DNA of 63,998 nt, filler included, from Malassezia furfur (GCA_052055015.1; 36 parts of 36 records of this genome joined end to end with filler, not necessarily neighbours in it); one strand, 5' to 3'; counted from the first letter of the whole stretch, positions 2,393 to 62,254 are shown. The notes: a model not told the origin generated them from the letters alone. Numbers and translations are program-made.

Positions 2393-3588
2393 CTACAGAT
2401 AGCCGCGGCACTGCGGCGAGCCACACAGGCACCGGATCGCCTCCTCGTCGCCCTCGCTGGATTGGACTGTGTCAGTGGGCGGCACGCACACTTGTAGTCG
2501 TACGTCAGCTCCTGCCCGGGCAAAATCGTGGTCTTGGCACTGCGTCAGCCCCGCACGTACAACAGCGCGATCCGCTTCTCGCCCTGCAGCGTCAAGATCT
2601 TCGCCGTGCAGTTCGGCGTGCAACAGTGCTGCGTCAGCAAGCCACCTACGTTCATCAGCCGCGCAATGTTGCCCTTGTGCGTCGCATCCACCACCACATC
2701 GTCGTCCACACGGAACAGGTAGGTCGAAAAGTTGCCCGCGCGCTCGTACAGCTTCTCGCGGTGGTCGGCCACCTGCTGCCGCACAATCTCGCCGACGTAC
2801 TCGATCACCATATCGCCCGCGGGAATGAGCTCCATCGCATACAGACCCCAGTCGTGGATCGGGCTCTTGGAGAAGCGCAGCTGCTTCTTGCGCGTCTGCA
2901 GCTGGTTGAACTTGAGCATGTCGGTGTCGGTGAGCGTCTCGCGCTTGTGCTGCTCCATGTCCAGCACCAGGCGCCGCGAGTCCGCACGGTTGTTCCGCGC
3001 CGAGCCGAGCGCGGGCCGATCCGCCGCGGGCGCTTCCGCCGCGCGGTTGCGGTCCGGCAAATGCGCGGCCTTTTCCGCAGCAGGGATCCGATAAAAGCCC
3101 TCGGCACGCGCACAGCCGCTCGCATGCGGGCCGTCGGGCGCCGCGCCCACGTCGGTCGCAACGCCCTGCGCCAAGACGCGCTGCAGGTACGACAGCTCCT
3201 CGCCGTCGGCCGCCACCCCCAGCGCAACGGGGTCGAGCACCCCGTCCGCCGCACGCGCCCCGTCCGCCGCCTCCTCAGCCGCGGCCGGCTTCGAGAGCTG
3301 CGCGGCCACCACATCGGGGCGCTTGCGGAACGACGGCAGATGCGTGTCGAGCACCGGCGGCGGCGCCGCCACGGCAAGCTTCGCGGTCGTCTGCGTCTTG
3401 TGCGCCGCAAGCAGCTGCGCACCCGGCCCGTCGGGCGCCAGGCACGCCGTGAGCCGCGGCGCCAGCACGCGGTTCTTCACGTCGCGCACAAACATCTGCT
3501 CGAGCGCCGCGAGCAGCTGGCGCTCGGCCTCCTCGACGAGCGCCGCACGCGTCCACACCGCCGGGCGCGGCGCCTCGCGCGGCGCATC
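2393..3588 (-). CDS. SET1: Histone H3K4 methyltransferase Set1, C-terminal N-SET/SET/post-SET region; introns 2629-2649, 2540-2560, 2467-2489
   Basis: GCARAEGFY, KFNQLQTRKKQLRFSKSPIHDWGLYA, VIEYVGE; splicing restores ARLMN|HCCTPNC, IALF|AKTTI, ELTYDYKF and CLCGSPQCRGYL*. Confidence 0.96.
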
Positions 3589-3688
3589 NNNNNNNNNNNN
3601 NNNNNNNNNNNNNNNNNNNNNNNNNNNNNNNNTTAATTAATTAANNNNNNNNNNNNNNNNNNNNNNNNNNNNNNNNNNNNNNNNNNNN

Positions 3689-5247
3689 GGCGCCGCACGG
3701 GCCCTGGCGGGCGTGCACGGGCCGCGCTAGGCGCCGTCGCGTTCGGCACGTGGCTGTGCGTGCTGCAGACGCTGTTGAGCGACGCCGGGACGCTGATCGC
3801 GTGGGGCTGGACGGGCTACCCCGTGCGCGGCCCGCAGGGCGTGCCGCACGGCGTGCTCGTCATCGCCGCGTTCGCGGCGGGCGTGCTCGGCGCGCTGCAC
3901 GTGCCCGCACTTGGCCTGCGCCGCGGCGTGTGGGCGGCGTATGCCGCGGGGTGTGCCGCGCTGTTCTTCCTGGACGACTGGGCGGGCCTCGCGGGCGGCC
4001 TCTTGGTCGCCGCGACGGCGCCGACGATGGCGCTGCCGCTGCTCCAGTCTGCGCTGACGCACGACCCACTCGCGGCGCTGCTCGGCGCGTGGGCCGTCGC
4101 GGTGGGGCAGTGGTTTTTGGGCGTGCTGACGGTCGCCTACGCGTTCCTGCCCGGCGCGTGGGTGATGCGCGAGCACACCGGCGCGCTGCTGGCGGTGCAG
4201 GGCGCGCTGCTCGTCGCAGGCCTACACGCGGCGCGCACGCCCGACGTCACCACGCGCCTGGCGGTCGCCGCGTCGACGCACCGGCGCCGCTTCCGCCGCG
4301 CGCTGTACGTCGTGCTCGGCGCGCTCGTGGGCGTTGCGTGCGTCGTGCCGGCGGTGCGCCGCGTGCCCGCACACCGCATCGTGCCGTACCACGCGGCGGA
4401 CCGCGTGTTCACCGCGGGCATCTGGACGGTGCACTTTGGCTTCGACCAGGCGATGCGCGACAACACGCGGCGCATGGCGCGCCTCTTCCGCGAGCTCGAG
4501 CTGGACGTCGTCGGGCTGCTCGAGACGGACCTGCACCGCCCCGCGTTCGGCAACCGCGACCTGACGCAGTACCTCGCCGAGGCGCTGGGGATGTACGCGG
4601 ACCTCGGCCCGAGCCCCAAGAAGCACACGTGGGGCGCCGTGCTCCTGTCCAAGTTCCCGATCGTGGAGAGCCGGCACTACCTGCTGCCGTCGCCGCACGG
4701 CGAGCTCGCGCCGGCGATCCATGCGGTGCTCGACGTGTTTGGCGTCCACACGCACGTCGTCGTCGCGCACAACGGGCAGGAGGAGGACGCGCTCGACCGC
4801 GAGCTGCAGACGACGGCGCTCGCCGAGCTGCTCGCCGCGACGTACCCCGCGCCCGCGGTGTTTCTGGGCTACCTCGTGACGCTGCCCCACATGAACCGCC
4901 CGAGCCCCTACGGGATCCTGTTTGGCGAGGGGCGCCTGCTCGACGCTGACCCGCGCGATTTGGACCGGTGGTGCGAGTGCCTCGGCTTCCGTGCGCTGGA
5001 GCGCGTCGCGTACGCGCGCGTGTCGCGCTTCACGGTGACCGACACCGAGCTGCAGACGTTCAAGCTGCGCGTGCCGCGCACCCCGATCGCGGCCGACCGC
5101 GACGTGCGGCCGCGCAAGCTTCCGTACGCCGAGCGCCCCGCGGCGGCGTGGGCGTACCCTGCGTCGCTGATCCAGCCGCACGCGCGGCTCAACGAGACCC
5201 ACATGTACGGCCCCGAGCTGTACCCCACGTACTTTGCTCCGCCATAG
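3689..5247 (+). CDS. CWH43: Cwh43/PGAP2-interacting GPI-lipid remodelling protein, C-terminal part
   Basis: TM helices followed by FTAGIWTVHFG, DVVGLLETD, GNRDLTQYLAE, HTWGAVLLSKFPI, GELAPAIHA, HNGQEED. Confidence 0.92.
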
Positions 5248-7442: not shown

Positions 7443-9074
7443 ATGGAGCGTACGTGAATACGGCTGACGCAGTCAAGGTGCTCTACTCTCTCGACACGAG
7501 CCCCCACCATACCATGATCGCACGCGCGTCGCAGCGCGTCGCTGTACGCGTCGCGCACGCGCCCGCGCCGCTCGGGACACTCGGGCGGGTCGCGCTGAAG
7601 ACGTGTTTGGGCGTGATCTGCGTCGCGAGCCCCGAGCTTGTGCTGGACCGCGCGAACGACTACATTGTGTACGCCATCGACCCGGAAGAGTCGCACCGCG
7701 TCGCGCAGCGCTCGCCGACGCACCGCGCACCGGACGCGGCGCGGGCGACGCCCCATGCGAGTCCGTCGCGGCGCACCGGCACGCCACACGTGCTCGTCGG
7801 CAAGGGATTTCTGAGCGGCGCGCTCGAGGAGCCGGGCGACGGCACATCGTACGTCACCGGGCGCGTCCGCACCGAGCCGCGGCACACCTACTCGGCCTTT
7901 TCCTCCGACGAGGACGAGGAGGGGGGAGAGGCGTCCAACGACGTACTCGAGGTCGTCCTACGCATGAAAGAGGCGCCACAGCAGAGCCGCGAACACCTCG
8001 CGACGCTCATGCAGGGCCTCGGCGAGGCGCGGCACACGCCGCCGGCGCGCACAGCGTCGACCTCGGCCCCGGCCTCGGCGCCCACCCCTGCACCCGCTGC
8101 GCCCTCTACGCCGACCGCCGAGCAGCGGCAGCTCATGTCGATGCTGCATGTGATTGCAGGCGCGCTGCCCGACCAAAAGGCGCGTCCGCCGCCGCCGAGC
8201 GCGCCGAGTGCACCGCCCAGCGGGCGTGCCGACCGTATCTGCTACAACTGCGGCACCACCACGTCCAAGACGTGGCGCATGCTGCAGCTGCCCGCGGGCG
8301 AGCCGGTGCCGCACCCAGCCGCGGAGCGCCCGCCGGCCGACGTCGTGCCACTCACGTGGACGCCCAAGTACGCGCGGGCGACGCAGTGCGTCGCCGACGG
8401 CGAGACGCGGTGGCAGGCGTGCAATGCGTGTGGCCTCTACTTTACGAAATACAACACGTCGCGCTCGGAACGCATGTGTGCGGGCGCACGCGCCGACAAG
8501 CGTCGTGACGCGCGCGCGCCGAAACGCATCAAGACGGAGGAGAGTGGCAATGGCAAGCCGCTCCGCCCGGCGCCGCCCGCGCAGCACGCGCGCGCGCTGC
8601 AGGACCTGAGTGGGAACGTGTCGCCCGTGCGGCGCACGGCATCGAGCCCCGTGCGCTCGCAGCGCATGCCGCCGCCGGCCGCGAGCCCACGTACATCGCG
8701 CAACGTGCGTGCCGCAACGCCGGGGCAGTACGGCGTGCCGTCGTACCTGATCCATTCGTCGCCGAACACGGCGATGCACCGCCTGTTGAGCGAGACGGAG
8801 CACGACCTCGACGAGATGCACGCGCACGGCGACCTGCCGACGCCCAGCAAGCTGTTGGCTTTGCGTGCGCCGACGTCGCCGAGCCCCGTGCGTCGCAGCC
8901 CACGCAAGCAGCCGCACGGCACGCGCGGCGCGGTGAACCCGTACGCGACACACGCGAGTGGCGCCACGCCGCTCTTTTCGAACGCGACGCCCTCTTCGCC
9001 CGCGCTGCCGCTCGACGAGCACGCCGAGGGGCCGCCGAGCCCGAGCGCCGAGCGCGCGAGTCGCGCCGAGCGGC
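7443..9074 (+). CDS. AMS2: Ams2/Spt21-like protein with a GATA-type zinc finger; intron 7450-7472; 3' truncated
   Basis: Spliced start ME|LKVLYSLD; GRVALKTCLGVICVASPELV...DYIVYAIDPEE (Ams2/Spt21 N-terminus); CYNCGTTTSKTWR...ACNACGLY. Confidence 0.7.
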
Positions 9075-9174: not shown

Positions 9175-10243
9175 GACGCCGCACACGCCGCGGCGCTGGT
9201 GTACGTCCCGTCCGAGAAGCGGCCCCCCGCGCTGCGGCGGCGCCTCCTGCCGCGCCTGCCGCCCGCGCGCCGCGACGAGGTGCAGCGGTTCGCGCTGCGC
9301 TGGGACACGGTCGACAACGCACTGGTAGGTCGCGTGCTCACCCTAGCAAGCGCTCCGCTTCGTGTTCCTGCTGCTCGACGCACACTACCAAGTTGATGTG
9401 CCCCGCACGCGCGCACAGGCGCTGCGGCGCCCGTCCGTGTGGGTGCTGAGCCGCACGCTCGCCAAGCCCACGCGCCTGTGGCTCGGCCAGTGGCTCATGA
9501 TCCTCAGCGAGGGCGTGGCCAACCTCCGCCGCGCCTCGCTGCTCGTCGTCTGGCTCGTGTGGAGCGTGCAGCGCCTCTGGGCGCGGCGCACGCACCCCGT
9601 TGTCGTGGCCCAGACCGACACGCCGCCGACCCCGCCGGCGCCGCACACCGAGCGCCTCGCGCTCGCAGGCGAGGCCCTCGCGACGCTCGCCGAGGGGTGC
9701 GACATGCTCGCCTTCGCGTCCGGCACCGGCCTGTTCTGGCGCGCGCTCGGCCTGCGCCGCCGGCCGCAGGGGTGGATCCAGCGCCGGCGCCGCGGCGTGG
9801 AGCGCGTCGGCGTGTTTGTCTCGCTCGGGGCGCTCGCCGTGCAGCTGTACGTCCTGCATGTGCAGCAGCGCGAGACGCTGGACGAGATGCACGCAAGCGC
9901 CGGCGCCGTACAGCACCAGCTCGAGACGTTTGACGCGCCCGAGGCCCATCGCCCGGACGCGCCGGACGCGCCGGACGCGCCGGCAGCATGGGACACCGAC
10001 GCCCCCGCCGCCAGCGCGGTGGCCGCCACCCCCTACGACCAGTACCTCGCGAACCGCCGGCGGCTGCGGTGGCTCGGCATCGAGCGCGTGTGTGTGTGCA
10101 GCGACGCAAGCTTTGCCCTGTACGAGGCGTGTGCGCCCGACCGCGAAAAGGATCGGTTCGAGGCGTCGACGGGGTTGCTCGCCGCGACGCTGCGCCTGCT
10201 CCGCCTGTGGAACGAGGCACGGTTGGGCGCACTGGATATCTGA
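9175..10243 (+). CDS. Membrane protein, possibly Pex11-family; intron 9325-9346; 5' truncated
   Basis: Two ORF-track frames joined by a 22-nt intron (DNAL|QALRFVF); helical/hydrophobic pattern with C-terminal ...SDASFALYE...GLLAATLRLLRLWNE. Confidence 0.45.
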
Positions 10244-10988: not shown

Positions 10989-12701
10989 GCCGCCGGTGCC
11001 GCCCGCGCAGCTGCTGCACGTGCTGCGTGCGGCGCTGGCCGTCGGCGCGATCGGTGCCGTGCGCCCGGTGCTCGTGGAGCACGCGTGGGTGTTTGGCGCG
11101 TGCCCGGCGCTGACCGCCGTGTACCTGCGCGTGGTGCGGCACATGCTGGCGCCCGCGTACCAGGCGCATTCGCTGGCGCACCGCGCGCCGGGCACCGCGC
11201 TCGGGCGCCTGCTGCCTGCGCGCGGCGCCGCCGGCGCGCCCGCGCTGCAGCTCACGCTGTACGCGCCCGAGCCGCGTGCGAGTGTGCGCGAGCGCTTTGT
11301 GTACTTTGTGGGCGACTGGGCGCGTGAGGTCGTGGTGTGCGCCGATGCGGCGGCGGTCGTGCGCGAGGCACTTCCCTTCCTGGCGCCCGTCGGCCCCCAG
11401 CTCGGGCAGGACGTGGTGCTGGTGCAGCAGCTGTGTCGCCTGGGAACCGCGGCGTGGCGCGACGCGCCCGAGGCGTGGCTTGCGCTGGTGCGGGCGCAGC
11501 TGCTGCCTGCCATCTCGGTGGCGGCATCCGATGCGGCGCTGCTGTACGAGGTGTGGGCGCTGCTGGAGCAGCTGCCGTACGCGGAGCGGTTCCGTGTGTG
11601 GGGCGAGTGGGAGCACCGCGCGTACAAGCGGCGCGAGCTGGCCTTCCGGCGCAAGGAGACCGAGCGCGAGGCGCGCGGCATCCTGCGCCGCGTGAGCGCT
11701 GACAATGTGCGGAGCAGCGGGCGGAGCCTGGCCAAGGCGTCGCACGCGAACCCCACCGTGTTCTTTGGGGTGGCGCTGCACCAGATCCAGTCGTACGACA
11801 ACCTGATTGAGCCGGTGGTCGATGCGGCCAAGTACCTGACGCCGCTCGAGTACGACGTCTTTACGTTTAGTTTGATCGAGGCGCTGAGCAACCCCGAAAA
11901 GGAGCGCACCAAGTCGGACGGGACGAACGCCAGCCTCTGGCTGAAGAGCCTCGCGGCGTTTGCGGGCGCCTTTTACAAAAAGTACCCCGCGATGGACTGC
12001 ACGCCGCTGGTGCAGTACCTCGTGAACCAGCTGCGGCGCAACCACGTCAAGGACCTCGTCGTCGTGTCCGAGCTCGTGCAGAAGATGGCGGGCATCGAGC
12101 CGATCGGCGAGCTGTCCGAGCCGCAGATCGCCGCGCTGTCGGGCGGCCCGCTGCTGCAGAGCGAGGCGGCGCTCACGCACATCCCCACGCCGCCGAATGC
12201 GGGGTCGGTGCCCACCGCGGTGCTGGTGGCACGCACCATGTACAAAAAGGGCGGCGCGCGCCTCCTGGCGACGCTCATGTCGAGCCATCTGGCGCTCCCG
12301 CTGCTGATCCTCATGGCGCAGCAGCGCCAGGCGTGTGTGTTTGTCGCGCCCGCCGACGAGGCGCACATCAAGTCGCTCGGCAGCACGCTGGACCACGTCC
12401 AAGAGACGCTCTTCCAGTACGTGCACTTTTGGGCCTCGACCGAGGGCGGCGCGGCGTATGCGGCGCACATGCTCCCGGCGCAGGACCTGCTCCGCCGCTT
12501 TGGCCTCGAGGCGGCGATTGCCTTTCACATTGCGCGGCCCAAGCTCGCGTACGAGGTCAAGGTACGTGGCGCACTGACCCAGACCACGCGGTATGATCCT
12601 GGCGCGCGCAAGAAGGACGAGCGGGCGGCGCCAGCCACGGACACGGCAGGCGGCGCACCGGCCGGCGACAGCGGCGCACCGGCCGGCGACAGCGGCGTAC
12701 C
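10989..12701 (+). CDS. THO2: THO complex subunit 2 (Tho2/Rlr1), internal fragment; probable in-frame intron 12562-12582
   Basis: LPYAERFRVWGEW, ILRRVSADNV, QIQSYDNLIEPVVDAAKYLTPLEYDV, KSDGTNASLWLKSLAAF. Confidence 0.93.
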
Positions 12702-12919: not shown

Positions 12920-14360
12920 CTACTTGCGCCTATCGCGGTACAGATCCACCTTGCTGAGCCGCTCCTTGCGCCGCCCATGCGTCGAGTCCTCGTTGTTCGC
13001 CTTGCCCCACCCCGCCAGCGGCACACACACCACCGTCGCATTGTCGACCGCGCCGAGGTTCTCCGCGTAGCGCAGCACGCGCTTCGCGGCCTCCTGCGGG
13101 TGCGCCGCGCCGCAGCACAGGTCCACGATCTCCTGGTCGCTCGCGACGTCGCTGATCCCGTCGCTGAAGCCCACGACAAACGCCACGTCCGTGCCGCGCA
13201 GCAGGTGCGTCGACACGTCCGGCTCGGGCGTCACGCCGAACCGCTTCGCGTCCGCGTCGCCAAACGCGCGCGTGTTGGCCAGCGTGCCCATCCACCGGTT
13301 CTCGCCGAACGAGTCGGTCACGACGCCCGCGCCCAGCCGGCTCAGCCGCTCGGCCTCCGCCGGGTCGTCGGGGTGGTGGTAGGTGGTCAGCGGCACGGCG
13401 CGCCCGTCCTGGACGGGGCACAGCACGAACCGCGTGTCGCCCAGGTGCACGGTGGTGAGCGAGACGTACTGGCTCGCGTACCACGGCGCCGCAGGCTTGT
13501 CGAGACTATGCACCAGCACCACACTCGCGGTGCTTCCCGCGCCTCGGTACGCCTCGTTCTGCTGGATCTCGCGGTCCATCTGCGTGAGCGCGCGGGCGAC
13601 GTACCATGAGCCACGCGAGCGTCGCGCGCTCCTTCAGCGTGAGCTCCTTGCCGTGCATCTCGTCGGGCGGCGCAATGCGCTCCGTATGCCGCACGCCCGG
13701 CGCCGTGTCGCTATCGAGCGCAACGTAGTGCTCCAGCGCGCGCTCGGGCGGTGCCGCGGAGCTCGCGGCGAGCGCCGAGAGCGACGCAAAGCGCTGTGTG
13801 GGTGCGTCGCGCTTCGGCGCGCGGCCCAGCCGGTCCTTGCGCACCCACCGCTCCAGCACACCGCCCGCGTACCGCCGGAAGTAGCCGCCGAGCGACCGCA
13901 TGTACCGCACCGTATCGGTGACCATGTCCGGCTCGGCCGCCTCGAACACGGCATGCAGCCGCTCGGCGAGGCGCTGCGACACGCTCGGGCCGCCGTGCCC
14001 GTCGAAGCACGCGAACCACACCACCTGCGCGCCCAAGTCGGGGCCGCCGGCCTCCATGCACGACCACCCGAACCACGGGTCGCGCGTCTGCCCGCGCGGC
14101 GTCGCGTCCACGATGCTCTGACGCAGCTGCTCGCACGGGAGCATCACGCACGCATACGACACCGCGTCTTCCTGCCGCGCACGCTCCCCACGGCTCGCCA
14201 GCGCACCAAACGTCTGCCCGGGCTTGAGCGGCACACGCGCACACGAGCCGCCGGGCGCACGTACACGCACGTACTCGTGGTACGCGTGCCGCTGCACCGA
14301 CGGGCCCGCGCGCGCGCGCGCAATGCGGGTCACACTACACCCACACGCCCGCAGCGCCAT
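12920..14360 (-). CDS. PP2C-family phosphatase, probably mitochondrial (Ptc6-like); intron 13580-13604; complete
   Basis: Arg-rich N-terminus MALRACGCSVTRIAR; RGERARQED, WFACFDGHGG, GSTA, HLGDTR, LANTRAFGD, FSDGISD, DNAT. Confidence 0.88.
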
Positions 14361-17135: not shown

Positions 17136-18128
17136 CTAGTTGGCCCGGCGCAGCCACGCCTCGTAGCACGCGCGGTCGCACGGCGCGCCGTCCGGGCCGC
17201 GGTACACCTCGGCGTCGTGCAGCGGCGCGTGGCACCGCGTGCACACGAAGCACGCGGGGTGCCAGTCGGCGCGCAGCGCATGCACCACCTCGTCGTCGAT
17301 GGGCCCGTGGCACGCCTGGCACTTGGGCCGGTGCAGCCGCGTGTGGCACTGGGTCAGCTTCGCAACGACGTACCGCGTCGCAGTAGGGGTGTGCGCCGTG
17401 CACAAAGAACGGCTTGCCGCCCTCGGTGGCGCTCGGCGCGGCCTCCGCGCCCGGGCTCGGCGCGTCGCGCGGCTCAAAGAACGGGTCGCCGCACCCCGCA
17501 CAGAAAAAGTGCAGCTCGTGGTACGAGCGCTGGCCCAGCCGCGCGTCGTCGATCGTCACGAAGCGCTCGTCGATGATGGGCGTCTCGCAGTAGAAGCAGC
17601 GCCGCGCAAAGCGCTCGTGGTAGTCCAGGTGGCAGTACGGCCGCCCGTCGTGCGCGTAGAACGATACATGCTCCAGTGGCGTCGCACACGCCGCACACAC
17701 AAAGCACCGCGCGTGCCACGCCGCGTCCATCGCATGCACCAGCGGGCCCACAATCCCGCGCTGGCACCCCGCACACGCCACCGACGACGTAAGCGACACG
17801 TCGCTCGCATCCTCGGCGTCGTACGGCACCTCGCCCCCGGTGCGCGCGCGCGCCGCATGCTGCGGCAGCGCCGCCGCCGACGCGTCAAACGACACCGTCG
17901 CGTCGCCGACCTCCGCCGCAGGGTCCATCAACGCGTCGGTCAGCTCCTCGCCCTCGATCAGCAGCAGCGGCACGGGCGGCCCCCCGGGCACCGCCGGCAC
18001 CATCTCGTACGGACGCACGCTGCGCACGGGCGACGGCGTGCGCGCAATGCGCGGCACACGGCCCTCGGGCGTGCGGCTGCGCGTCGGCGTCTCGGGCCGC
18101 GCAGGCGCACCGAGCGTCCCCGGCGGCG
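17136..18128 (-). CDS. Paxillin-like LIM-domain protein, C-terminal LIMs; intron 17349-17373
   Basis: CAGC...WHARCFVCAAC...YCHLDYH; CFYC...YHELHFFCAGC...YCDA|CH; CQAC...WHPACFVCTRC...CDRAC. Confidence 0.88.
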
Positions 18129-21836: not shown

Positions 21837-23517
21837 CCGGCGGCGCGCGCACGGGCTCCGTGGGCGTCGAGGGCGTGGGGGTCGGCTGCTGCAGCTCCGC
21901 GACCTTGGCGCGCAGGGCGCCCATCTCGGCGCGGTAGCGCACGAGCAGCGCCTGTGTCTCGGCGCTTGGGGTGCCAACGAGCAGCGACAAGTCGCCGTCA
22001 AACTCGTTCGGCTCGGCACGTACCGCGACCTTTTTGATGCGGCGCGCAAAGTTGAGTGTGCCGAGCGACTCTTCGACCATGTCGGGGTTGGGGTTGAGCG
22101 TGCACACCACCGCGATGCGTGCGTTGCCGTTCAGGCTGTTTTGCAGGATCCGCGTGAGCTTGGAGTCGCGGAACGGCACGTGGATCGCGTGTGAGCGCGG
22201 CGCGCGCTCGTGGCGCTCGGCGGCGCTCCGCTCCGACAGCGCATAGATCACCTTGCCGAGCGACAGCAGGCTCTTGTTGATGTTGGCGCCCTCGGTGCGC
22301 CGGCTTGCGCCCCACGTGTGCCGCTCGCTGCCTGCGAGGTCGATGAGCGACAGTTCGCTGATGCGGTAGTGCCGCCCGACGTGCTCGGCGTCGGTCGCCG
22401 AGGTGCGCTCCCACGACTCCACGGTCACTTTGAAGCACGTGTGGCTCCGCGAGGAGCGCTCGTTCCAGTCGGTCGCGCCGACATGCCGGTTCGCCTCGCC
22501 ACGCGCAAGCAGCGCAAATACCTGGCTCGGCGAGGTGACTACCTCTTCCTGGAGCGGCGCGACAAACACGGCATTAGCGCCGCGCCGCCGGTCGTCGCGC
22601 ACCTGCGGCTGGCTGCTGGGGTCGAGCAGGTCGCGCACGATCTCGTTCCAGATCTCCAGGTAGCTTACGCGCACGAGGTACTCGCGCTCGGCGGAGCCCT
22701 GACAGATGCCCTGGAACACGTCGCAGACCGCGCGCGGGATGATGCCGGGCTCGGTGCCGTGCTCGCCGCCGCTCAGCGTAAACGTCTTGCCGCTCGCCGT
22801 CTGGCCATAGGCAAACACCACGGCATTGTAGCCCCGCAGCACGCTCTTGACCAGCGGCCGTGCCAGCGTCGTGTACACGTCCGCATTCGAGCTGCCCGTA
22901 TGTACACCGTCAAACTGGTACGGCACGCCCACGTTCGGCTGCACCTTTTGCGCGGCGATCGCAGGGTCCAACATGACCGTCGCCGTGTCAGGGGTGGTGA
23001 TCCATGCACACGCTTCGTCTTCGTACGTCGGGCGTAGGCTGGGTAAGTGGGTGCAGACGTACCGTACGTGCACAAGAACCGAGTCGCTCCCATCGGCGCC
23101 CGCGTCGACTTCGTCGTCGTCCAGCAAGAAGGACGACTCGCCGAGCTCCTCGGCAACAGCGTCCACATCGACGCGCTCCGCCGCCTGCGGCAGGGCGCGC
23201 GGCGCAAGTGCCGCCGGGGGCACCGCGCGCGTGGGCGACGCAGTGACCAGCGCCGTCGGCGCACGGCTGGGGCCAGCGGCCGGCGCAGCGAACGGCGCCT
23301 CGCGCCTGGTCCGCCGCGGCACCCCGTCGGTGATCTTGGCACGCAGTGGCCGGGGCGCCGTAGACAGCGGCGTGCTGCGCTCGGGGGAGGCCGTGCGCAC
23401 CCGCGGCGCTTCACTGCGCTCGCCGGAAACCATGCGCACCGGGGACCGCGCCACGGTCGCCATCGACGTGCCAGGCCGCGGCGGCGCGGTGCCCAGCGCC
23501 GACCGTGTCGGTGACAT
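21837..23517 (-). CDS. Kinesin motor, kinesin-7/Kip2/Tea2-like; in-frame intron 23039-23062; 3' truncated
   Basis: VHVR|LRP after splicing, FAYGQTASGKT, SYLEIWNE, TDWNERSSRSH, LIDLAGSE, HVPFRDSKLTRILQ. Confidence 0.93.
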
Positions 23518-24202: not shown

Positions 24203-25249
24203 CTACATAGGCACCTCGACCGTGACCACTGCGTCGTCGCGGCACCCCGCGGCGCCGAGCAGATTCGCTTGGTCGCCCGCGCGGAACGTAATCACGCTCG
24301 AAGAGCCCGCAAAGATGGTGTCTGGGTGAGCCATGCACGTACCCTTTTCGCTGCCCGTACGGTTCGCCGCAATCAGCGTCGTGCGGTGGCCCTCGTGGCC
24401 CGGCTCGCCCATGCCCGGCACCCACAGCGGGATGCACCGCGCGACCCAGTAGTTGATCGTCGTGACGCTCGGCTGGTTGTGGCTGGGGTCTGTGCGGTAG
24501 GTCTCGTGCTCCTCTTCCGGCAGAAGCCAGTTCATGGGGAGCACGAGCAGGTCGACCTTGTTCTTGTCGCAGTAGTGCGCAAGCTCGTACTTTTCAAAGT
24601 CGGAGTCGAGCAGGTAGGCTGCGGTCAGGCGCACGACGTACGGTTCAGGTCCATGCAGATTGCCACGCAGATCCGCCCGAGGCGCGGCACATCCACGTAC
24701 GAAAAGCCGCGGCCTTCGTCGGCCCACGGCGTGTCGGCCTCGAAGAGAAAGTGCTTGCGGAAGACGTTGGCCAGGTTGCCCTGCGGGTCCACAAGCATCG
24801 CCGAGTTGAACGCCTGGTCGCGCACCTTGGGCAGGTACGTCGAGGTGGCCGCCTCGAGCGCCTGCGGGGTGCGTGCGTCGACGAGGCCTTGGGCGAGCTG
24901 GCAGTCTTCGAGCGCTTCGGGTGACATGCGCTCGGGGAAGCCGGCCACGACGTAGCACTCGAACTGCTTGGCCAGCGACGTCGCCAGCGCATACGTCGCG
25001 CCCTCGCCGCGGTACGGCAGCTCGAGCAGCGGCGCAATATGGTCAAACGAGTCGAACAGGTAGCCTGGGTCAGTGCGCAACCCCCGTACCGGTCAAGGCC
25101 ATCTCGGGCAGGACGAGCAGGTCGATCGAGCCAGGCGCGACGCTGGGTGAGTGGGCAGGCACGTACCTCTTGAGCATCGCGCGAATATGCGCGGCATTCT
25201 CCTCGCACTTGCCGGGCTGCGACGCAAACTGCACCGAGGCGACGCGCAT
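24203..25249 (-). CDS. NTA1: N-terminal amidase Nta1 (carbon-nitrogen hydrolase); introns 25143-25166, 25065-25089, 24619-24641, 24322-24342; complete
   Basis: Spliced product MRVASVQF...IDLLVLPEMALTG|YLF...FNSA...FRKHFLFEADTPWADEG...AICMDLNP|Y...NRTGSEK|DTIFAGSS; E-K-C triad present. Confidence 0.9.
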
Positions 25250-41474: not shown

Positions 41475-42071
41475 CCGCGTTAGCCCCCGCACCCTCGGCG
41501 CCAGGGCGCGGCACATCGTACGCCTTGCAAACTGCGTCAGGATCGCCACGCACTCTCGTCCATGTACGCGTCCACCAGCTCCGGCGGGGGCATGTGGAAC
41601 GCCAGCTTGCGCGTGATGCGCGGCGATACGCACTCGTCCACGTTATCCAGCGCATCCTTGGCGAGCTCGGGGCCGTAGCGCGCTGCCAGCATCTCTTGCA
41701 ACGTGTGCAGCTCGACGAGCTCGGTGCGGTGCGCCGCATGCAGGATCGCCAGCAGCGGCTCGCGGATCGCCTCGGGCGGCTCCGTGCTGGGTGAGTGCTT
41801 GCACGTACCCTGGCATCTCGAGCAGCGCAAAGCGCGCATAGAGCGTCTCGCAGTACAGCTCGAGCAGCTCGAGCAGCTCAATGTGCACGTCGTCCATGAT
41901 CAGCGACTCGGTCTTGACGCGCGCCGTCTCGACCTTGCCGCGCACAACCAGGTCGGCAATATCGCGCCGCGCCTTCTTCGCGAGCGACTCGCGCTTCGCC
42001 TGCAGCATGTGCGCGCGCTGTACCGCGAGCTTGAGCTGCACCTTGGTCCGTCCGCTCGCCCACCGGACCAT
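41475..42071 (-). CDS. IST1: ESCRT-III-associated Ist1; introns 41787-41808 and 41532-41553; 3' truncated
   Basis: TKVQLKLAVQR, ARRDIADL, ARVKTESLIMDD, ELLELYCETLYARF, LVDAYMDEI|CKAYDV. Confidence 0.9.
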
Positions 42072-50285: not shown

Positions 50286-51938
50286 CGCTGGCGTTCGCCG
50301 AGGCGCGGGCGCTGTGCACCGACCTGGCCGCGCTCTATACCGGGTCTTCGGCATCGCTGCACGTACCTGGGCGCGTCGAGGAGCGGACAGCCGCCGTGCA
50401 CTACGACGAGCGCGTGCGTGCGCAGCTTGTGCTGACACTCCCCAGTGTGCCCAGCAAGCTGCCGGCGCCGTCCGAGGACGCGGCGCAGGTGACGTATGCG
50501 ACTGCCGCCGACGCCGGCGTGCCACCCCTTTTGCGCCTGCTGCTCAGCGCATTGCAGGTGAGTGTGCATGGCACGCGTGAGGGCCACGACGTGCCGCTGC
50601 TCACGCGCAGCTGGCACGGCGCGCAGGCGGACGCCGCGCTGGTGCTGCGCGACGAGGCCGACCGCTTCGCCGAGGCCGACACGCGCACCCCGCTTACGGA
50701 TGCGGCGTTCGTGAGCGGCATTGCGTTTGACGCACACGCCCACGCCTGGCGCGTCGCCTGGCTGTGTGATGTCGTGATACGTACGTCCCCGTCGACTTAC
50801 GCAGCCTACCCCAGCGCCGAGCCGGGCATCGATACGGTGCACCTGGATGCTGCACTGGCATTGCGCCTCGACCTGTCGCGTCTTGTCGGGCGCGTCGATG
50901 CGCCGCCGCCGCAGACGCCCTTTCATTTTGCGGCCGGCGAAGGCCACCCGTTCCTGAGCGCCGAGGACCCATACGTGGTGGATGTCGACCTGCTCGCGCT
51001 GTACAGCGAGGGCGTGACCGTCCCGGATGAGACCGCCGAGCAGCGGCACCACCACATTGCGTCGCGGCTCACGCTGCTGCCTCTGTCGATGCTCGTTCCG
51101 CACGCGACGGGTGTGCAGCTCGTCGCGCCGTTCAGCCAGAGCACGCAGCTCGCGCAGGCCATGGCGCGTGCCAAGGACCTCGAAAACGCCGCGATCGCGT
51201 CCGACGCGGACATTGCGCTTGCGCCGCTTGCCGCGGCGAACAAGGCGCAGCACGTCGACCGCACTGCGCGGCCTACGCCCGCGCGGCAGACATCGATGCC
51301 GCCGGCACGCACGGCCGATGGGCCGCCTGCGCACGACGTCGCGACGGCCGTGATGCGGGGCATTGTCGTGCTGACGCGGCATGCACACGCGCCGCTGCGT
51401 GTGCAACCGACCATGTACGTGCGCATGCGCTCGCTGAACCGCGCACATACCCTGCCGAACGGCGCGTGCGGCGTGTTCCTGTGCATCGAGCTCGAGAGTG
51501 CATTGACGCATGGCGACGTGCAGGTGCACGACGTCGACATTGCGGTGGGCGGGCCGATTGCACCGGACGCCGCGAGCCCTGCGCTCCTCGCCGAGTCGAT
51601 CACGCCCGTCGTAGCGCCCGCGGAGGGCGGCGCCGCATGGCCCATCCGCCTTGGTCCTGGCGCGCAGTACAACGTGCTGTACACGGTGCAGCTCGACAAC
51701 TATGGCGGTGCGCCCGGCGCGCTTGCGTCGCTCGTCGAGCAGTGGTCGCCGCGGCGCGAGACGCGTGTCACGGTGCGAACCGCGATCGTGCGTGCCGAAG
51801 GAGAGGCGCCCGTGACGTGTGCGTCGCAGTGGGACGGCGTGCTTGACTTGCGCACGCTGCAGGTCGAGCAGTACGTGCGTCTCGTGGCCGAAGCGGCCGT
51901 GTACGACGCGACGCAGTACGATGCAGACCGTGCGCCGC
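50286..51938 (+). CDS. Probable TRAPP II subunit Trs65-like protein, internal fragment; probable in-frame intron 50781-50804
   Basis: YVRMRSL...FLCIELES, VHDVDIAVGG, WPIRLGPGAQYNVLY resemble basidiomycete Trs65-domain proteins. Confidence 0.5.
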
Positions 51939-53787: not shown

Positions 53788-55434
53788 ATACCCCCCCGCC
53801 CGCCTATGCGCCCGAAGCGGCGCCGATCCTGTCGGATAGTCCGATCCACTTTTTCGTGTCGCGCTATGCGATCGCGATGGTCGCGATGGTACGCCGCCCA
53901 CCAAGCCACCGCCCATGCTGACATCAGGTGATTATCACGAACCGCATTCAGCACGTATGCACACCGTACGGCCGCCCCGCGCGCATCACACCGACGGAGC
54001 GTGTCATGCTGCGCGTGCCATCGATCGCGATGCTATCGTACGCGCTTGTGCGCCTGCTGCAGGCGATGTGTGCCGATACCACCACACCGACGGCCCAGGC
54101 GTGGCTGGCGTACGTGCGGCCGTGGGTGCCGCACACGACCAAGACGCTGCAGCCCGACTCGCTGCTGTGGCTCGCGCTGCTCAGCGCGTGTGTCGCGCAG
54201 TGTGTGAGCACCGCCGTGCGGTCGCTCGAGCTGACGTACGTCTTTGCCGCCGACTGACCGCAGGAGCGCCCAGGACGACCCGTCGACGTTCAACTTGGTC
54301 GGCTTCGGCTTCATCCTGTACATCCACGCGCACGCGCGCCAGTTTGCGCCAAACGCGCACGTGTATCTGATTGTGATTTCGCGGATCGTCGAGCTGCTCG
54401 GCATGAATGTGCTGCTGTGCCGCCGCCCACCGCTCGTGTCGCGCCTCGTGTTCACCATGGTGCTGAGTGCGGTGATGACGGTGCACTACGTGTACACGGC
54501 CGTGCAGTCGGACGAGTACCCCATCATCCACAGCGGCGGGCGGTTGATGGAGGTGAGCATCCTGGGCATGATTGTCCTGACGATCGCGCTGCACCTGCTC
54601 ACGATGTACTTTGTCGACCGGCGCGTGGACCTGCACCGTCTCTTTTTCCACCGGAGCAGCCTGCCGCACAGCACGGACGACTTCTCGCTCGCGGTGCTCA
54701 AACTCGGCACCGCATGCCTGCACGCGACCAAACTCACGGGCTTCTCGTGCGAGCTGCAGGCGCTCGACACACCGCTCCGCACCTACGTCGAGCTCCGCCC
54801 CGACGGCAGCACGGTGATCGAGAACAGCATCGAGGACCTCGAGCAGATGGACTCACACACCTACCACCCGCTCGAGCACGAGATCAAGGACCTCCGCGTC
54901 GTCCTCGAGCACTCGGGCGTCGAAATGGGCGGCGTCGTCCGCGGCGCCGACAAGATGCGCGCGCTCACGCGCTTTTTCCAGACGCTCCTCGAGATCGTGT
55001 GGACGATCGTGCGCGAGGGCGCCACGTACACCGCTCGCTACCTCCCCGCGCCCCCCGCGTGGGTGCACCATATCCCGCGCTACGTCCGCCTCTTTTGGCA
55101 CGGCACCAACGGCGAGGCAGAGCGCGACGCACGCCTCGCGCGCGAGGCCGCACAGCGCGCCGAGGCCGAAAAGGCGCACACGCGCATGGAAGAGCTGCGC
55201 GCGCGCCGCGCCGAGCGCGCGCTGCACTCGGACGACGCCTCGGACGAGGACGAAGCGGACCTGGACGCGACCCAACTCGTTGCGCTCGCGCAGCAGGACC
55301 AGGGCGCCGACGCCGCGACGTTCCAGGACATGCTTGTGAAGCACATGCTGCGTGCCGATGCCGCGCCGCCCCTGACGCGCCGCGCTACGTCCGCCTCTTT
55401 TGGCACGGCACCAACGGCGAGGCAGAGCGCGACG
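53788..55434 (+). CDS. Polytopic membrane protein, Asi1/Asi3-like N-terminal region; introns 53889-53927 and 54236-54263
   Basis: Spliced FFVSRYAIAMVAM|VIITNRIQHVC; DPSTFNLVGFGFILY; DDFSLAVLKLGTACL; several TM segments. Confidence 0.5.
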
Positions 55435-58992: not shown

Positions 58993-60615
58993 ATACTGCC
59001 GCGTGGTCGCCCACGCGACGCTGTACACGGGCCCGTGGTCGACGCGTGCGACGCCCGCGTTCATGTCCCACGACGCGACGCACCGCCCGAGCGCCAGGTC
59101 CCACAGGCGCACCATGCCGTCGTCCGCGCCGGTGAGGAGCCACGTGCCGGTGGGGTCCGGCGCGGCGGTGCGCACGCGCCCCGCGTGCGCATACACCACG
59201 TCGGTGTGCGTCGGGAACGGGCGCAGCTCGCGCGGCGACGGGAGCTGCGGCAGCAGGTCCTCGGCGCGCTCGATGTCCAGGCGCTGCCGGCGCACGCGCG
59301 GCGCGAGGTACAGGTCGAGGCACCGCTGGAAGCGCTCCTGCACCGCCGCGTCGTAGCCGGGCACGAGCCGCAGCGCCGCGTACTTGGTCGGGATATAGGG
59401 CAGCTTGCGGTCCTCCGGGTCGGCCGCCTCCCACTCGGCGCGCTCCGCGTCGCTGAACAGGTACTCGGCCGGCGGGTTGTACGACTCGACGTGCGACGGC
59501 AGCGGGAGCTTGGGCGCGGGCATGTGCATCGCATGGTCCGCGCGCGCGACGTCCGCGTCGCTCCACAGGTTGTAGAACGGCGGGCGCTCCTTGCCGGGCG
59601 CGTGCGCGACGATGCGGCCCTGCCGGATCGCACGCACAATCTTCATCACCTTCTTGTGCTCCCACTTGCTCGGCACAAACCGGCTCTTGGGCTCGGGGCG
59701 CGCGCTCATGGGCGTCACCAGCTGGTGCTGCGTGAACCAGTCGGTGGCCGGCTCGTACGGGTCGTACGCATCGAGCGGGATCTCGGCACGCTGCAGCCGC
59801 CGGATGATGTCGAGCTCCTCGTCGGTGAGCCGCACGTCTTTGCCGCCCAGCTGGTCGCGCGCAGAGAAGTATGCATCGCCCTCGCCGTCCACCGTGTCCA
59901 GGAAGCGGTCGAGCTCGTCGCCCTGCGCGGGGCGCAGCACCCGCTTGCCGTTGATGTCGTAGCCGAGGTGCGGCAGATCGTCGTACCAGTGCAGCGGCAC
60001 ATTGCCGATGCGGTTCTCGGTCTCTTCGGTGCTCGAGTCGCTGTCGTACTCGGGCTCGATCTCGGGGTACGCCATCTTGTTCTCGCCGGTGATCGCCGAG
60101 CGCACCACGCGCCCACGGAACGAGCCGTCGTCGTTGCGCGCGTCGTCGTACAGGTGCGCCGCCTGCGCCCGGTCGATGCCCAGCCGGTTCGTGCTCGGCG
60201 CCCGCTCGTCGGGCTTTGCGCGTGCACGCGCAATCATGCGCGCGAGCGCCGCGTCGCCCTCTTCGGCGTCCGACAGGTCGCCGGGCGTGTCGGCGTCGCC
60301 ATACACTGCGTCAGAAGAAGACGTACGCTCGTCCTTCGCCTCGTCCCAGTCGTCGATCTCGTCGCTATCGAAGCCGGAGCCCGAGCCGGAGCCCGCGTCG
60401 CCCCCGTCCTCGTCGTCCTCCGCCTCCTCGTCGTCGTCGTCGTCCTGCGCGTCCAGCTCCGGGAACGGCTCTTCCTCCCCGTCGTCGTCCACCTCGGCGT
60501 CGTCCTCGTCGTCCAGCTCGAGCGACTGCGCAAGCGTGTCGAGACCCGGCTCAGGCTTCGCACGCCCGCGCGCCGCGGCCGGCGCCGCCAAGGCGCACGG
60601 CCACGGCGTGTTTCT
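58993..60615 (-). CDS. ERB1: Ribosome biogenesis protein Erb1/BOP1, N-terminal two-thirds
   Basis: Acidic N-terminus; YPEIEPEYDSDSSTEE, NRIGNVPLHWYDD, FVPSKWE, ESYNPPAEYL, ERFQRCLDLYLAPR, LPSPRELRPFP. Confidence 0.95.
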
Positions 60616-60715
60616 NNNNNNNNNNNNNNNNNNNNNNNNNNNNNNNNNNNNNNNNNNNNTTAATTAATTAANNNNNNNNNNNNNNNNNNNNNNNNNNNNN
60701 NNNNNNNNNNNNNNN

Positions 60716-62254
60716 ACGGCGGCGGCGTCTTGATGTCGAGGATCGCCGTCGCGACGCTCGCGACCTGCGGGCCGAAGCGGAAGCTCTGCGTGAGCTGGTA
60801 GTGCGCGCTTGGGGGGTAGACGCGCGGGTGGAACGCGGCGGCGCTGCCCCCGCGGAAGCCGTAGATCTTCTGGTGCACGTCGCCCACCACCACGATCGCA
60901 CACGCGCCGCGCGCACGCAGCAGGATCGCCGTCTGGCACGCCGACAGGTCCTGCGCCTCGTCGAGGAGCAGCGCGGTGTACTCGGCGAACGCGTGGCCCG
61001 TGCCGTGCAGCTGCAGCAGCTTGACGTACGCATCGTGTGGGCACGCGACCGGCGCGCCGCGCGGCGTGCGCCCGGCGCAGATCATGTCCCAGAGCGCCGC
61101 GGCGCACGCCGCGACGTCGGCGGGGCGCAGGTCGGTGTACTGCTGCAGCTGCCGCGGCACATGCTTCTCGGCACGCAGGTGCGCATCGGCAGACTGCAGG
61201 AAGCGGTCGAGCGTGCGCAGCACATAGGTTGCGACGGACGTCGGCGAGAGCTTGTCCGGCCGCGTGTCTTCGCGGAGGCGGCGGCCCTCGGGCAGCTGGC
61301 CGCGCAGCAGGTGCACCACGTCGCGCGGGCGCAGCGTGCCGAGCGCCTGGCCGTCGGGCAGCTGGACGTGCCGCAGCGCGACCGCATGCATCGTGCGGCA
61401 CTCGACGTTCGCCGGGAACTGCGCGCGCGCCGAGCGCGCGGTCGCCGCGTTGAAGGTGATGTACAAAAAGCGCGACGAGGGCCGCCGCTGCGCAAACGCG
61501 AGCAGGCAGCGGGTCTTGCCGGTCTGCGTGAGTAGACAGCACGTACACCGGCATACGCCTGCACACACACGAGGTCGTCGCGCTGCAGGGGGTGCGCGAC
61601 GAGCTGCTCCTGCTCGTCGGTGAGCGCACCGGGGGGTATCGGGGCGCGGCGCGGCGCAAAGAATGCGTCGAGCGCCGCGGCACACGCGGCGTCCAGCGCG
61701 TGCACCGTCTGGTGGTAGGGGCGCTGCGCCGCGCCGCTCGCAAAGTGCCGCGACACGCGCAGCACCGCGAAAAAGACGCGCGCGTAGCACAGCAGCTCGA
61801 CGGCGTCCGGCGCGTCGAAGCGCGCAAACGCGTCGTCCGCGTCGACGCGCCCGAGCACGAGTGCGCCAAAGAAGAGCTGCGCGGCGCCCGCGTCGACGAT
61901 CGTCTGCCGCGCCGCGCACGGCAGCAGCTCGTGCAGCTGCAGCGGCGGGCGCGCGAGGTGCAACGCCGCGAGCGCCTCGGTGTAGTGCTGCACGAGCGCG
62001 GCCTCCGCGCCGGGCACCTCGTCGCCCGTGCGCACGCCGCGCTCGTACGCGGCCTCGGCGTGCGCCCATTTGTGCCAGCGCTTGCGCCACGGCGCAAAGT
62101 GCGCCGCGTTCACAAACGGGCGCAGCCGCCGGTCCGCACACAGCAGGCACACCACGTCCGCCATCGACAGGTGCGCGAGCATCGCAAACACGGTGCGCCG
62201 CGGCATGCACTCGAGCAGCGTGCGCCGAGGCGCGTCGCGGCCCCGGACCTTCAT
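60716..62254 (-). CDS. FBH1: F-box DNA helicase Fbh1-like (UvrD/SF1); intron 61524-61546; 3' truncated
   Basis: F-box-like LLECMPRRTVFAMLAHLSMADVVCL; LTDEQ; Walker A VQAYAG|TGKT; LYITFN, CRTMHAVA, HDAYVKL, LLDEAQD, VGDVHQKIYGFRG, LTQSFRFG. Confidence 0.87.

Follow-up and report, generated by a model that had tools for sequence, protein, structure and literature searches.

Introns of 21-28 nt with the branch motif beside the 3' splice site in Malassezia contigs

The window, that is, the whole stretch of 63,998 nt analysed here, is not one locus and consists of 36 unlinked contigs of 1560-1746 bp each, joined by N44-TTAATTAATTAA-N44 linkers. The best protein matches are those of RFC3 (99% to M. 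brasiliensis) and of NTA1 and a kinesin (98% to M. furfur); judged from these 98-99% identities, the host is a Malassezia near M. furfur/M. brasiliensis, in agreement with the genus named in a preliminary description of this DNA. The window contains 26 introns (about 0.43 per kb), spread over 17 of the 36 contigs; since these contigs are unlinked, the distribution favours the genome-wide occurrence that had been claimed. All 24 introns listed previously run from GT to AG at the coordinates and lengths given for them, 7 on the plus and 17 on the minus strand, and Pfam and homologue alignments bear out the gene names SET1, NTA1, and RFC3. Two introns, at 60306-60326 (21 nt) and 53889-53927 (39 nt), are added to that list. 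In the following list, frame switches are those called by a codon-usage Viterbi model that is blind to the splicing motif.

2467..2489, minus strand: SET1 intron 3, 23 nt, GTGCGT..CTGAC-A-CAG, phase 1; gapless SET1 C-terminal alignment.
2540..2560, minus strand: SET1 intron 2, 21 nt, phase 2; gapless SET1 alignment; in-frame stop if retained.
2629..2649, minus strand: SET1 intron 1, 21 nt, GTAGGT donor, phase 0; gapless SET1 alignment; interrupts N-H-C-C, a conserved stretch in the SET domain.
7450..7472, plus strand: intron of an Ams2/SPT21-like GATA factor, 23 nt, phase 1; motif on the coding strand; stop if retained; the Pfam Ams2-SPT21_N match begins, at profile position 10, with the first residue of exon 2.
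9325..9346, plus strand: intron of a gene without known family, 22 nt, GTAGGT, CTCAC-CC-TAG; frame switch from +0 to +1 at 9349/9350; codon score 9.3 spliced versus -43.9 retained.
12562..12582, plus strand: intron near the 3' part of the THOC2 gene, 21 nt, phase 0; called from the motif on the coding strand alone; in-frame codon score at the 7th percentile of coding windows.
13580..13604, minus strand: PP2C phosphatase intron, 25 nt, phase 0; frame switch at 13604/13605; codon scores; Pfam PP2C in the downstream exon.
17349..17373, minus strand: LIM protein intron, between LIM domains, 25 nt, phase 0; frame switch at 17373/17374; the frames of the flanking LIM matches are offset by the intron length.
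23039..23062, minus strand: intron of a Kip2-like kinesin, 24 nt, CTTAC branch motif, phase 2; junction gapless in 16/16 homologues; interrupts the V-x-V-R-x-R-P strand at the motor start.
24322..24342, minus strand: NTA1 (CN-hydrolase) intron 4, 21 nt, phase 1; gapless in all homologues reaching it.
24619..24641, minus strand: NTA1 intron 3, 23 nt, phase 1; gapless; frame switch at 24642/24643.
25065..25089, minus strand: NTA1 intron 2, 25 nt, GTACGG donor, phase 1; gapless; frame switch at 25072/25073.
25143..25166, minus strand: NTA1 intron 1, 24 nt, phase 2; gapless alignment.
29403..29428, plus strand: mitofissin intron, 26 nt, GTGCGT donor, phase 0; frame switch at 29405/29406; stop if retained; the Pfam Mitofissin match (profile 1-52 of 69) ends on the last exon residue.
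31058..31078, plus strand: intron near the 3' end of a gene without known family, 21 nt, phase 1; motif on the coding strand; in-frame codon score at the 0.6th percentile.
33236..33262, minus strand: MAP65/Ase1 intron, 27 nt, phase 0; Pfam MAP65_ASE1 positions 6-264 in the upstream and 268-446 in the downstream exon.
34430..34450, minus strand: RFC3 intron 3, 21 nt, phase 1; gapless against 12 homologues.
35120..35141, minus strand: RFC3 intron 2, 22 nt, phase 1; gapless; frame switch.
35207..35232, minus strand: RFC3 intron 1, 26 nt, GTGCGT, CTGAC-ATG-CAG, phase 2; gapless; frame switch.
41532..41553, minus strand: Ist1 intron 2, 22 nt, phase 1; the Pfam Ist1 match of the upstream exon ends at profile position 156/164 on its last residue; stop if retained; the contig breaks off 18 codons into the downstream exon.
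41787..41808, minus strand: Ist1 intron 1, 22 nt, phase 2; frame switch at 41801/41802; Pfam Ist1 positions 1-76, then 80-156, across the junction.
50781..50804, plus strand: intron of a gene without known family, 24 nt, CTTAC branch motif, phase 1; motif on the coding strand; in-frame codon score at the 0.6th percentile.
53889..53927, plus strand: probable 39-nt intron, GTACGC donor, CTGAC-ATC-AG tail, 7 nt after the branch A; in-frame TGA; removal joins two open stretches; blip of the codon model at 53891-53921.
54236..54263, plus strand: intron of a gene without known family, 28 nt, phase 2; frame switch from +2 to +0 at 54254/54255; stop if retained; codon score 23.5 spliced versus -34.5 retained.
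60306..60326, minus strand: intron in the acidic N-terminal part of Erb1/BOP1, 21 nt, phase 1; strict motif on the coding strand; in-frame codon score at the 0.3rd percentile; BOP1NT domain in the downstream exon.
61524..61546, minus strand: UvrD-like helicase intron, 23 nt, phase 0; frame switch at 61549/61550; the Pfam AAA_19 match opens with the first downstream-exon residue, at profile position 22.

Scanning the 36 contigs for a strict motif (GT[AG][CG]G[TG]-N4-16-CTNAC-N1-4-YAG, 18-30 nt in total) returns 25 sites, all of 21-28 nt and all on the strand that the codon-usage model assigns as coding, whereas 200 dinucleotide-preserving shuffles of the same contigs give a mean of 0.9 sites (sd 0.9, maximum 4), an enrichment of at least 25-fold. 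These 25 introns measure 21 nt (seven cases), 22 and 23 nt (four each), 24 and 25 nt (three each), 26 nt (two), 27 nt and 28 nt (one each), so that the mode coincides with a floor of 21 nt, estimated from the 26 introns in 60.5 kb alone. As previously stated, six of the 24 introns originally listed are exactly 21 nt long and none is shorter. The strict motif scan of the window finds no intron below 21 nt; the sole shorter match, of 17 nt (2540-2556), falls within the 21-nt SET1 intron, and the SET1 alignment favours the 21-nt form. Two further strict-motif matches look like products of chance: the 61-nt one at 52369-52429 sits in an uninterrupted 524-aa ORF, whose frame its removal would shift, and the one at 57859-57900 is on the non-coding strand. 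With 25 of the 26 introns at 21-28 nt, the tiny introns are essentially the whole intron population of the sample; the label of a class of spliceosomal micro-introns stands as regards the spliceosomal type and falls as regards a special class set beside ordinary introns.

The anatomy of the introns is highly uniform and corresponds to the one first described. GT and AG delimit all 26, and in the 25-intron set the donor is GTACGT in 18, GTGCGT in four, GTAGGT in two, and GTACGG in one, in line with the extended consensus GTRNGT. The branch motif, of the form YTNAY, reads CTGAC in 15, CTCAC in eight, and CTTAC in two, and follows a G+C-rich spacer of 6-12 nt; in several of the 21-nt introns the stretch from the donor to the AG has no A but this one. 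One nucleotide separates the motif from YAG in 21 of the 25 introns, two in three, and three in one, which leaves 5, 6, and 7 nt after the branch A, respectively. The branch motif therefore abuts the 3' splice site, and no pyrimidine tract is present in the introns. The branch A lies 16-22 nt from the 5' end of the intron, and the shortest position, 16, equals the loop size first proposed; in yeast, the distance from the 5' site to the branch is far above this range. From the sequence we infer both the excision of these segments and the identity of the branch nucleotide.

Removal of the introns restores reading frames and conserved motifs, as had been noted, and the evidence for this is of several kinds. 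Specifically, 11 of the 26 junctions (three in RFC3, four in NTA1, three in SET1, and that of the kinesin) align without gaps to distant homologues. The SET1 alignment comprises 13 full-length homologues out of 16 examined, and the Pfam SET match breaks off at profile position 66/105, precisely where the exon ends at intron 1. For NTA1, three of 11 homologues end before the intron 4 junction, and those that are gapless across it include Ustilago, Violaceomyces, Acaromyces, and Serendipita. Moreover, Pfam profile coordinates run on across two further junctions, in MAP65 and Ist1, and of the 14 introns with lengths not divisible by three, 11 coincide with a frame switch in the codon-usage model, which places no other intragenic switch anywhere in the window. 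Profile coordinates or frame switches thereby back most of the introns that lack a homologue alignment. The remaining 11 introns of the 25-intron set are multiples of three, 10 of them without an in-frame stop, and their codon scores, if retained, would rank among the bottom 0.2-12% of coding windows.

Four of these stop-free introns (12562, 31058, 50781, and 60306) stand outside the frame and homology checks, their basis being motif, strand, and codon statistics, and one of them could be false, given the approximately 0.9 matches expected by chance. That some of the four are retained short coding insertions matching the motif by accident is nevertheless very improbable. Public predictions in other Malassezia species do translate through such segments, and the orthologue of NTA1 intron 3 is read through in two public Malassezia proteins; against this, all four have the full consensus and are on the coding strand, their in-frame codon scores fall at the 0.3-7th percentile of coding windows, and the other stopless multiples of three that were testable by profiles or homologue alignments proved to be introns in six of six cases. 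Even less credible is an origin of the whole set in non-spliceosomal removal of the Ire1/tRNA-ligase type, known from HAC1/XBP1, or in frameshifts from sequencing or assembly. The XBP1 intron is 26 nt long, and this similarity of size is all that speaks for the Ire1-type route, whereas GT..AG ends, the extended donor, and the CTNAC branch motif are common to 25/25 introns spread over 17 unrelated contigs, and a 15-nt composite consensus is not expected from random indels. The shuffle statistics of the motif effectively refute both forms of this explanation.

The reading that best accounts for these data, with a probability of about 0.92, is that the segments are ordinary U2-type (GT-AG) introns of the furfur/brasiliensis group of Malassezia, compressed almost to the smallest size that the three splicing signals allow. 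Each intron would be built of a 6-nt donor, mostly GTACGT, a spacer, an R-CTNAC branch motif, and a tail that is nearly always one base followed by CAG. By general knowledge of base-pairing, the donor would be read by U1 and later by U6, and the branch motif would pair with U2. The 3' splice site would be the first YAG, kept beside the branch by a 3-nt tether, so that neither a pyrimidine tract nor a long-range search for the 3' site would be needed; the lengths would cluster at 21 nt since 6+6+5+4 is the least length at which the donor and branch helices can still be bridged.

Very short introns are already published for Malassezia, and those described here are spliced in public gene models; only their detailed anatomy is new, and the novelty initially attached to them was overstated. 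M. sympodialis has 5350 introns with a mean of 30 bp, 99% of them supported by RNA-seq (PMC5389616, Table 2), the median intron of M. restricta is 30 nt (PMC9241646, Table 1) in an annotation with the lower limit on intron length set to 15-20 (PMC9241646, Table 1; PMC6473144), and a review mentions "very short introns" in the genus (PMC7426719). Public models splice 8/8 comparable junctions, in M. brasiliensis RFC3 and in M. furfur NTA1 and kinesin (P0001, P0121, P0305). The introns of the window share with the published ones the genus, the type of element, and the order of size, about 30 nt or less, but they are more narrowly distributed and shorter (21-28 nt in 25/26, mode 21), with a 5-nt tail after the branch A. 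A literature search brought up no description of branch-site geometry for Malassezia.

The orthologous RFC3 introns of a lower-GC relative (locus L025) are longer, at 30 nt (intron 1), 79 nt (intron 2), and 39 nt (intron 3), with 8-13 nt after the branch A, and the compaction is for this reason lineage-specific. The geometry could tentatively be ascribed to a lineage-specific, specialised or reduced spliceosome, in which U2AF/Mud2, Slu7, or Prp18 are lost or relaxed or the 5' ends of U1/U2 are altered, a doubtful reading to which the longer orthologues, the tail fixed at 5 nt in 21/25 introns, and the length mode at the floor lend some weight. The second-step factors of yeast do become dispensable at such distances: in S. 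cerevisiae in vitro, exon ligation proceeds without Slu7, Prp18, and Prp22 at branch-to-3'-site distances below 7 nt (Brys and Schwer 1996, as cited in PMC3392075), and Slu7 is dispensable below nine nucleotides (P-complex structure preprint, bioRxiv 10.1101/212811). The same in vitro splicing of substrates with spacings below 7 nt (PMC3392075) suggests, however, that an unmodified spliceosome may tolerate short tails, and Prp17, the sole splicing factor that the window offers, shows good conservation (its match to human PRP17 has E 2.6e-127). Neither the window nor loci L001 and L025 yielded an snRNA. The Malassezia introns resemble these yeast substrates in a spacing below 7 nt, which offers a mechanism for choosing the 3' site by proximity, although short spacing belongs to engineered substrates in yeast and is the genomic norm in the Malassezia sample.

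It is unlikely, though conceivable, that the M. furfur lineage holds nearly its whole intron complement on a hard mechanical floor of 21 nt, composed of a 6-nt donor, a 6-nt bridge, a 5-nt branch motif, and a 4-nt tail, with the 3' site chosen purely by the 3-nt tether, and that the need for U2AF/Mud2 as readers of the pyrimidine tract and for Slu7 and Prp18 as docking factors of the 3' site may be relaxed or removed. If this were true, simultaneous binding of U1 and U2 across the intron would be sterically implausible, and Malassezia, because it is culturable and transformable, would serve as a tractable fungus in which to study the splicing of minimal introns. Moreover, the 10/25 introns that are in frame and stop-free would imply that this yeast keeps retention in check through near-perfect splicing and not through nonsense-mediated decay.

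The Malassezia introns have partial counterparts in distant lineages. Tiny introns also occur in nucleomorphs and microsporidia. Stop-free introns with lengths in multiples of three are reportedly depleted in Paramecium, a deficit that the Malassezia introns, in this small sample, do not share, with 10/25 of this kind. Fused branch points and 3' splice sites characterise the introns of Giardia, Spironucleus, and Trichomonas, with the motifs VCTRACACRCAG and RCTAACAARHTAG (PMC6679479). In both systems the donor is extended and conserved and the branch motif is tied to the 3' site at near-invariant spacing, but the 12-13-nt diplomonad/parabasalid motif is absent here, where a 9-nt R-CTNAC-[GC]-CAG takes its place, and the spacing is 7-8 nt there versus 5 here; in those protists, an unrelated lineage, introns are very scarce and some are trans-spliced, in contrast to the density of the Malassezia sample. 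The parallel is a resemblance in design only. Lastly, the ultra-short introns of the ciliates Paramecium and Nyctotherus, of about 25 bp (PMC5014332), have a comparable length range and a similarly sharp lower limit, but they are A+T-rich, whereas those of Malassezia are G+C-rich.

The reading of the 21-28 nt segments as spliceosomal micro-introns, put forward in the preliminary description, is borne out by eleven gapless protein junctions, by the continuity of Pfam profiles, by frame switches and by an excess of motif sites (25 against 0.9), and their excision is demonstrably needed for intact proteins. Homologues were retrieved with unaltered exon queries, and the spliced translations were then aligned to them. 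Specifically, all three junctions of RFC3 are gapless against 12 homologues ranging from Malassezia to Coprinopsis and Rhizopus, and the four junctions of NTA1 are gapless wherever a homologue covers them, including those of Ustilago, Violaceomyces, Acaromyces and Serendipita (n=11, a set in which some shorter or mis-predicted Malassezia sequences miss certain junctions and two homologues read through the third intron). For SET1, 16 homologues were examined: the C-termini of the 13 full-length ones align without gaps across the three junctions, two of the others run into the first intron and then stop, and one is without eight residues. The single junction of the Kip2-like kinesin aligns without gaps in all 16 homologues; this intron splits the V-x-V-R-x-R-P strand with which the motor begins, and the translation that retains it aligns to solved structures only from residue 205. 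Homologues thereby verify 11 of the 26 introns in the window. Moreover, Pfam profile coordinates run on across the intron in MAP65_ASE1 (264 to 268) and Ist1 (76 to 80), and further matches break or begin exactly where an exon does.

Pfam matches delimited by exon edges
SET: broken exactly at the exon end, profile position 66/105
Mitofissin: broken exactly at the exon end, profile position 52/69
Ist1: broken exactly at the exon end, profile position 156/164
AAA_19: begins exactly at the exon edge, profile position 22
Ams2-SPT21_N: begins exactly at the exon edge, profile position 10

A codon-usage model trained on Pfam-supported exons, with a seven-state Viterbi segmentation blind to the motif, places same-strand frame switches within genes at 11 of the 14 introns of non-3n length (those starting at 9325, 13580, 17349, 24619, 25065, 29403, 35120, 35207, 41787, 54236 and 61524); at the other three (2467, 7450 and 41532) the adjoining exons are too short for the model. 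Introns of 3n length, when read in frame, score within the lowest 0.2-12% of coding windows, and the four starting at 12562, 31058, 50781 and 60306 are supported solely by motif, strand and this in-frame codon score. A phase test on GC3 only agrees in just 18 of 25 introns, because its 150-nt windows are confused by adjacent introns and short exons. The remaining discontinuities of the model all have ordinary causes, of the kinds listed below, and were rejected as introns.

Model discontinuities rejected as introns
about 18308: frame change at a start codon behind a 5' leader
25930-26130: intergenic
27479-27982 (-): Pro/Ala-rich coding repeat
47305: stop that separates two neighbouring genes in the same frame

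The low-complexity repeat at 27479-27982 consists of imperfect units of about 13 residues, is called non-coding by the model and is without a Pfam match. At the last locus, the TAG at 47305-47307 (+) is followed about 60-70 nt on, in the same frame, by the start of a gene with a Lactamase_B_6 domain, possibly of the CPSF-100/Cft2 type; the packing is tight, and the pair at 47305-47400 looks like a single ORF broken by a stop.

Each of the 24 introns previously proposed is a GT..AG element of the length assigned to it (7 on the plus strand, 17 on the minus strand). A scan of the window for GT[AG][CG]G[TG], spacer, CTNAC, 1-4 nt and YAG recovers all of them plus one more, giving 25 motif sites of 18-30 nt against a mean of 0.9 (sd 0.9, maximum 4) in 200 dinucleotide-preserving shuffles, and the codon-usage model puts 25 of 25 on the coding strand. 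Below 21 nt the scan returns one match only, a 17-mer nested within a 21-nt SET1 intron. With a looser motif and the codon model together, a further, probable intron of 39 nt emerges, which contains an in-frame TGA and whose removal fuses two open coding stretches, and no longer introns were detected in the window by the codon model and the motif scans. The original list is thereby slightly extended, to 26; two other, longer matches look like chance.

Additional sites
60306-60326 (-): intron, 21 nt
53889-53927: intron, 39 nt, donor GTACGC
52369-52429: probable chance motif match; its removal would cause a frameshift within an unbroken 524-aa ORF
57859-57900: probable chance motif match on the non-coding strand

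The window is not a single locus: it is made of 36 contigs of 1560-1746 bp in descending order of length, with G+C contents of 0.64-0.77, joined by artificial linkers.

1747-1846, and 34 more: linker, N44-TTAATTAATTAA-N44, between contigs

Since the contigs are merely concatenated, neighbouring positions across linkers carry no meaning and, being unlinked, the contigs serve as a sample scattered over the genome. In this sample, 25 of the 26 introns measure 21-28 nt, with a density of about 0.43 per kb and a presence in 17 of the 36 contigs; the proposal of a distinct class of micro-introns is therefore unsupported, as these introns are the intron population itself. In protein searches, the large RFC3 exon shows 99% identity to a M. 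brasiliensis protein and 95% to one of M. japonica, the NTA1 exon 98% to a M. furfur protein and the kinesin exon 98% to a protein of M. furfur CBS14141. Judging from these identities (98-99% to the two nearest species), the source organism is a Malassezia near M. furfur/M. brasiliensis, in agreement with the genus guessed beforehand.

For the anatomy of the 25 introns of 21-28 nt, the earlier account (donors, CTNAC, short tail, GC-rich spacer and no pyrimidine tract) proves accurate throughout.

Anatomy of 25 introns of 21-28 nt
Donor: GTACGT 18, GTGCGT 4, GTAGGT 2, GTACGG 1
Branch motif: CTGAC 15, CTCAC 8, CTTAC 2
Position of the branch A: 16 (8 introns) to 22
Bases after the branch A: 5 nt in 21/25, 6 nt in 3/25, 7 nt in 1/25
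Terminal trinucleotide: CAG 24, TAG 1
Length: 21 nt in 7, 22 in 4, 23 in 4, 24 in 3, 25 in 3, 26 in 2, 27 in 1, 28 in 1
Phase 0/1/2: 8/11/6

The base before the branch motif, tallied from the printed intron sequences, is mostly a purine, and the 3' signal is effectively a single 9-mer, R-CTNAC-[GC]-CAG. The spacer between donor and branch motif is 6-12 nt long and rich in G+C (G 74, C 72, T 32, A 23), a pyrimidine tract is absent from the spacers of all 25 introns, and the exon bases that flank them have no consensus. The mode of the length distribution is also its minimum (21 nt), with counts dropping steadily above it, as expected for shrinkage up to a hard limit of 6+6+5+4 nt. Lengths of 3n are found in 11 of the 25 introns, ten of which are without an in-frame stop.

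RFC3 allows a comparison within the genus, as a metagenome scan with its exon returned two Malassezia-like loci. At L025 (154-1600, +; G+C 0.54) the gene has five introns of 30, 79, 66, 61 and 39 nt, with 8-13 nt after the branch A, whose removal yields an unbroken product of 349 aa; the introns of 30, 79 and 39 nt occupy positions identical to those of the window introns of 26, 22 and 21 nt, and the other two (66 and 61 nt) are without counterpart in the window. At L001 (3102-4133, +; G+C 0.655) RFC3 is one uninterrupted, intronless ORF, and the whole 13.9-kb locus carries at most one candidate micro-intron (8203-8226); a motif match at 9265-9288 was rejected for its position on the non-coding strand. 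As the three RFC3 genes differ in their introns, intron number and size are variable among Malassezia, and the most compressed introns, at least for this gene, belong to the lineage of the window. Among public predicted proteins of other Malassezia species or related sequences, two of NTA1 (P0124, P0128) and one of RFC3 (P0010) have insertions of 8-9 residues at micro-intron junctions, and in two of SET1 (P0156, P0157) the translation continues into the first intron; both features probably reflect gene callers translating in-frame micro-introns.

Tiny introns of Malassezia are already in print, and the implied novelty of the finding does not hold. The curated annotation of M. sympodialis counts 5350 introns with a mean of 30 bp, 99% of which have RNA-seq support (PMC5389616, Table 2; the length distribution is its Figure S8), and M. 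restricta is listed with 2150 introns with a median of 30 nt and a mean of 37.2 (PMC9241646, Table 1). The annotation of M. restricta set the minimum intron length at 20 and 15 (PMC6473144), the 'very short introns' of Malassezia genes are mentioned in a review (PMC7426719), and a kingdom-wide intron survey includes M. sympodialis without highlighting it for length (PMC8476143). In Giardia, Spironucleus and Trichomonas, fusion of the branch point with the 3' site at a fixed spacing has been described (PMC6679479), with motifs that, as presented there, are longer than, and different from, that of the window. A literature search, with most subscription journals outside its reach, found nothing on Malassezia branch-site geometry or on a length floor. 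What may be new is quantitative, namely the 21-nt floor where the distribution peaks; the nearly constant 5-nt tail behind the branch A, the many in-frame introns without a stop and, on the evidence of one gene, the greater compression of this lineage than of a lower-GC relative may be new as well. The known picture of tiny Malassezia introns is sharpened, rather than a new one revealed. In practice, stop-free 3n introns of 21-27 nt escape ORF-based and many default gene callers, and the rule GTRCGT, 6-12 nt, CTNAC, 1-3 nt, YAG would improve the annotation of these skin yeasts.

According to the general knowledge of the U2-type spliceosome, the donor would be read by U1 and afterwards by U6, the branch motif would be paired by U2 and the 3' site would be the first YAG past the branch; with just C-N between the branch A and YAG, the 3' site would be tethered to the catalytic centre. 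To our knowledge, a donor-branch distance of 16 nt and a 5-nt tail are near the limits for any eukaryote. In S. cerevisiae, Slu7, Prp18 and Prp22 are all reported as unneeded when the distance from branch to 3' site is <7 nt (PMC3392075, citing Brys and Schwer 1996), and Slu7 is described as dispensable at <9 nucleotides (bioRxiv 10.1101/212811); since these yeast factors are unneeded at short distances, an unmodified second-step machinery could handle such introns. The specialised spliceosome suggested in the preliminary description is a speculative idea. The harder puzzle is early assembly, as just 6 nt lie between the donor and the branch motif. Should this geometry apply throughout the genome, nature would have provided an experiment on how U1 and U2 can engage signals 10 nt apart and on whether the second-step factors, required in yeast only at longer spacings, are still needed. 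Malassezia is a culturable and transformable fungus. No snRNA was matched by Rfam in the window or in L001/L025. The window does encode a second-step factor, the well-conserved Prp17 (E 2.6e-127 against human PRP17, with the WD40 region aligned end to end), and another of its contigs carries an ORF whose architecture we take to be that of a Swi4/Mbp1/Swi6-type cell-cycle transcription factor.

55986-57164 (-): Prp17/CDC40, C-terminal 393 residues, the 5' part lying beyond the contig end
2-1744 (-): ORF, KilA-N (APSES-type) DNA-binding domain and, behind it, ankyrin repeats
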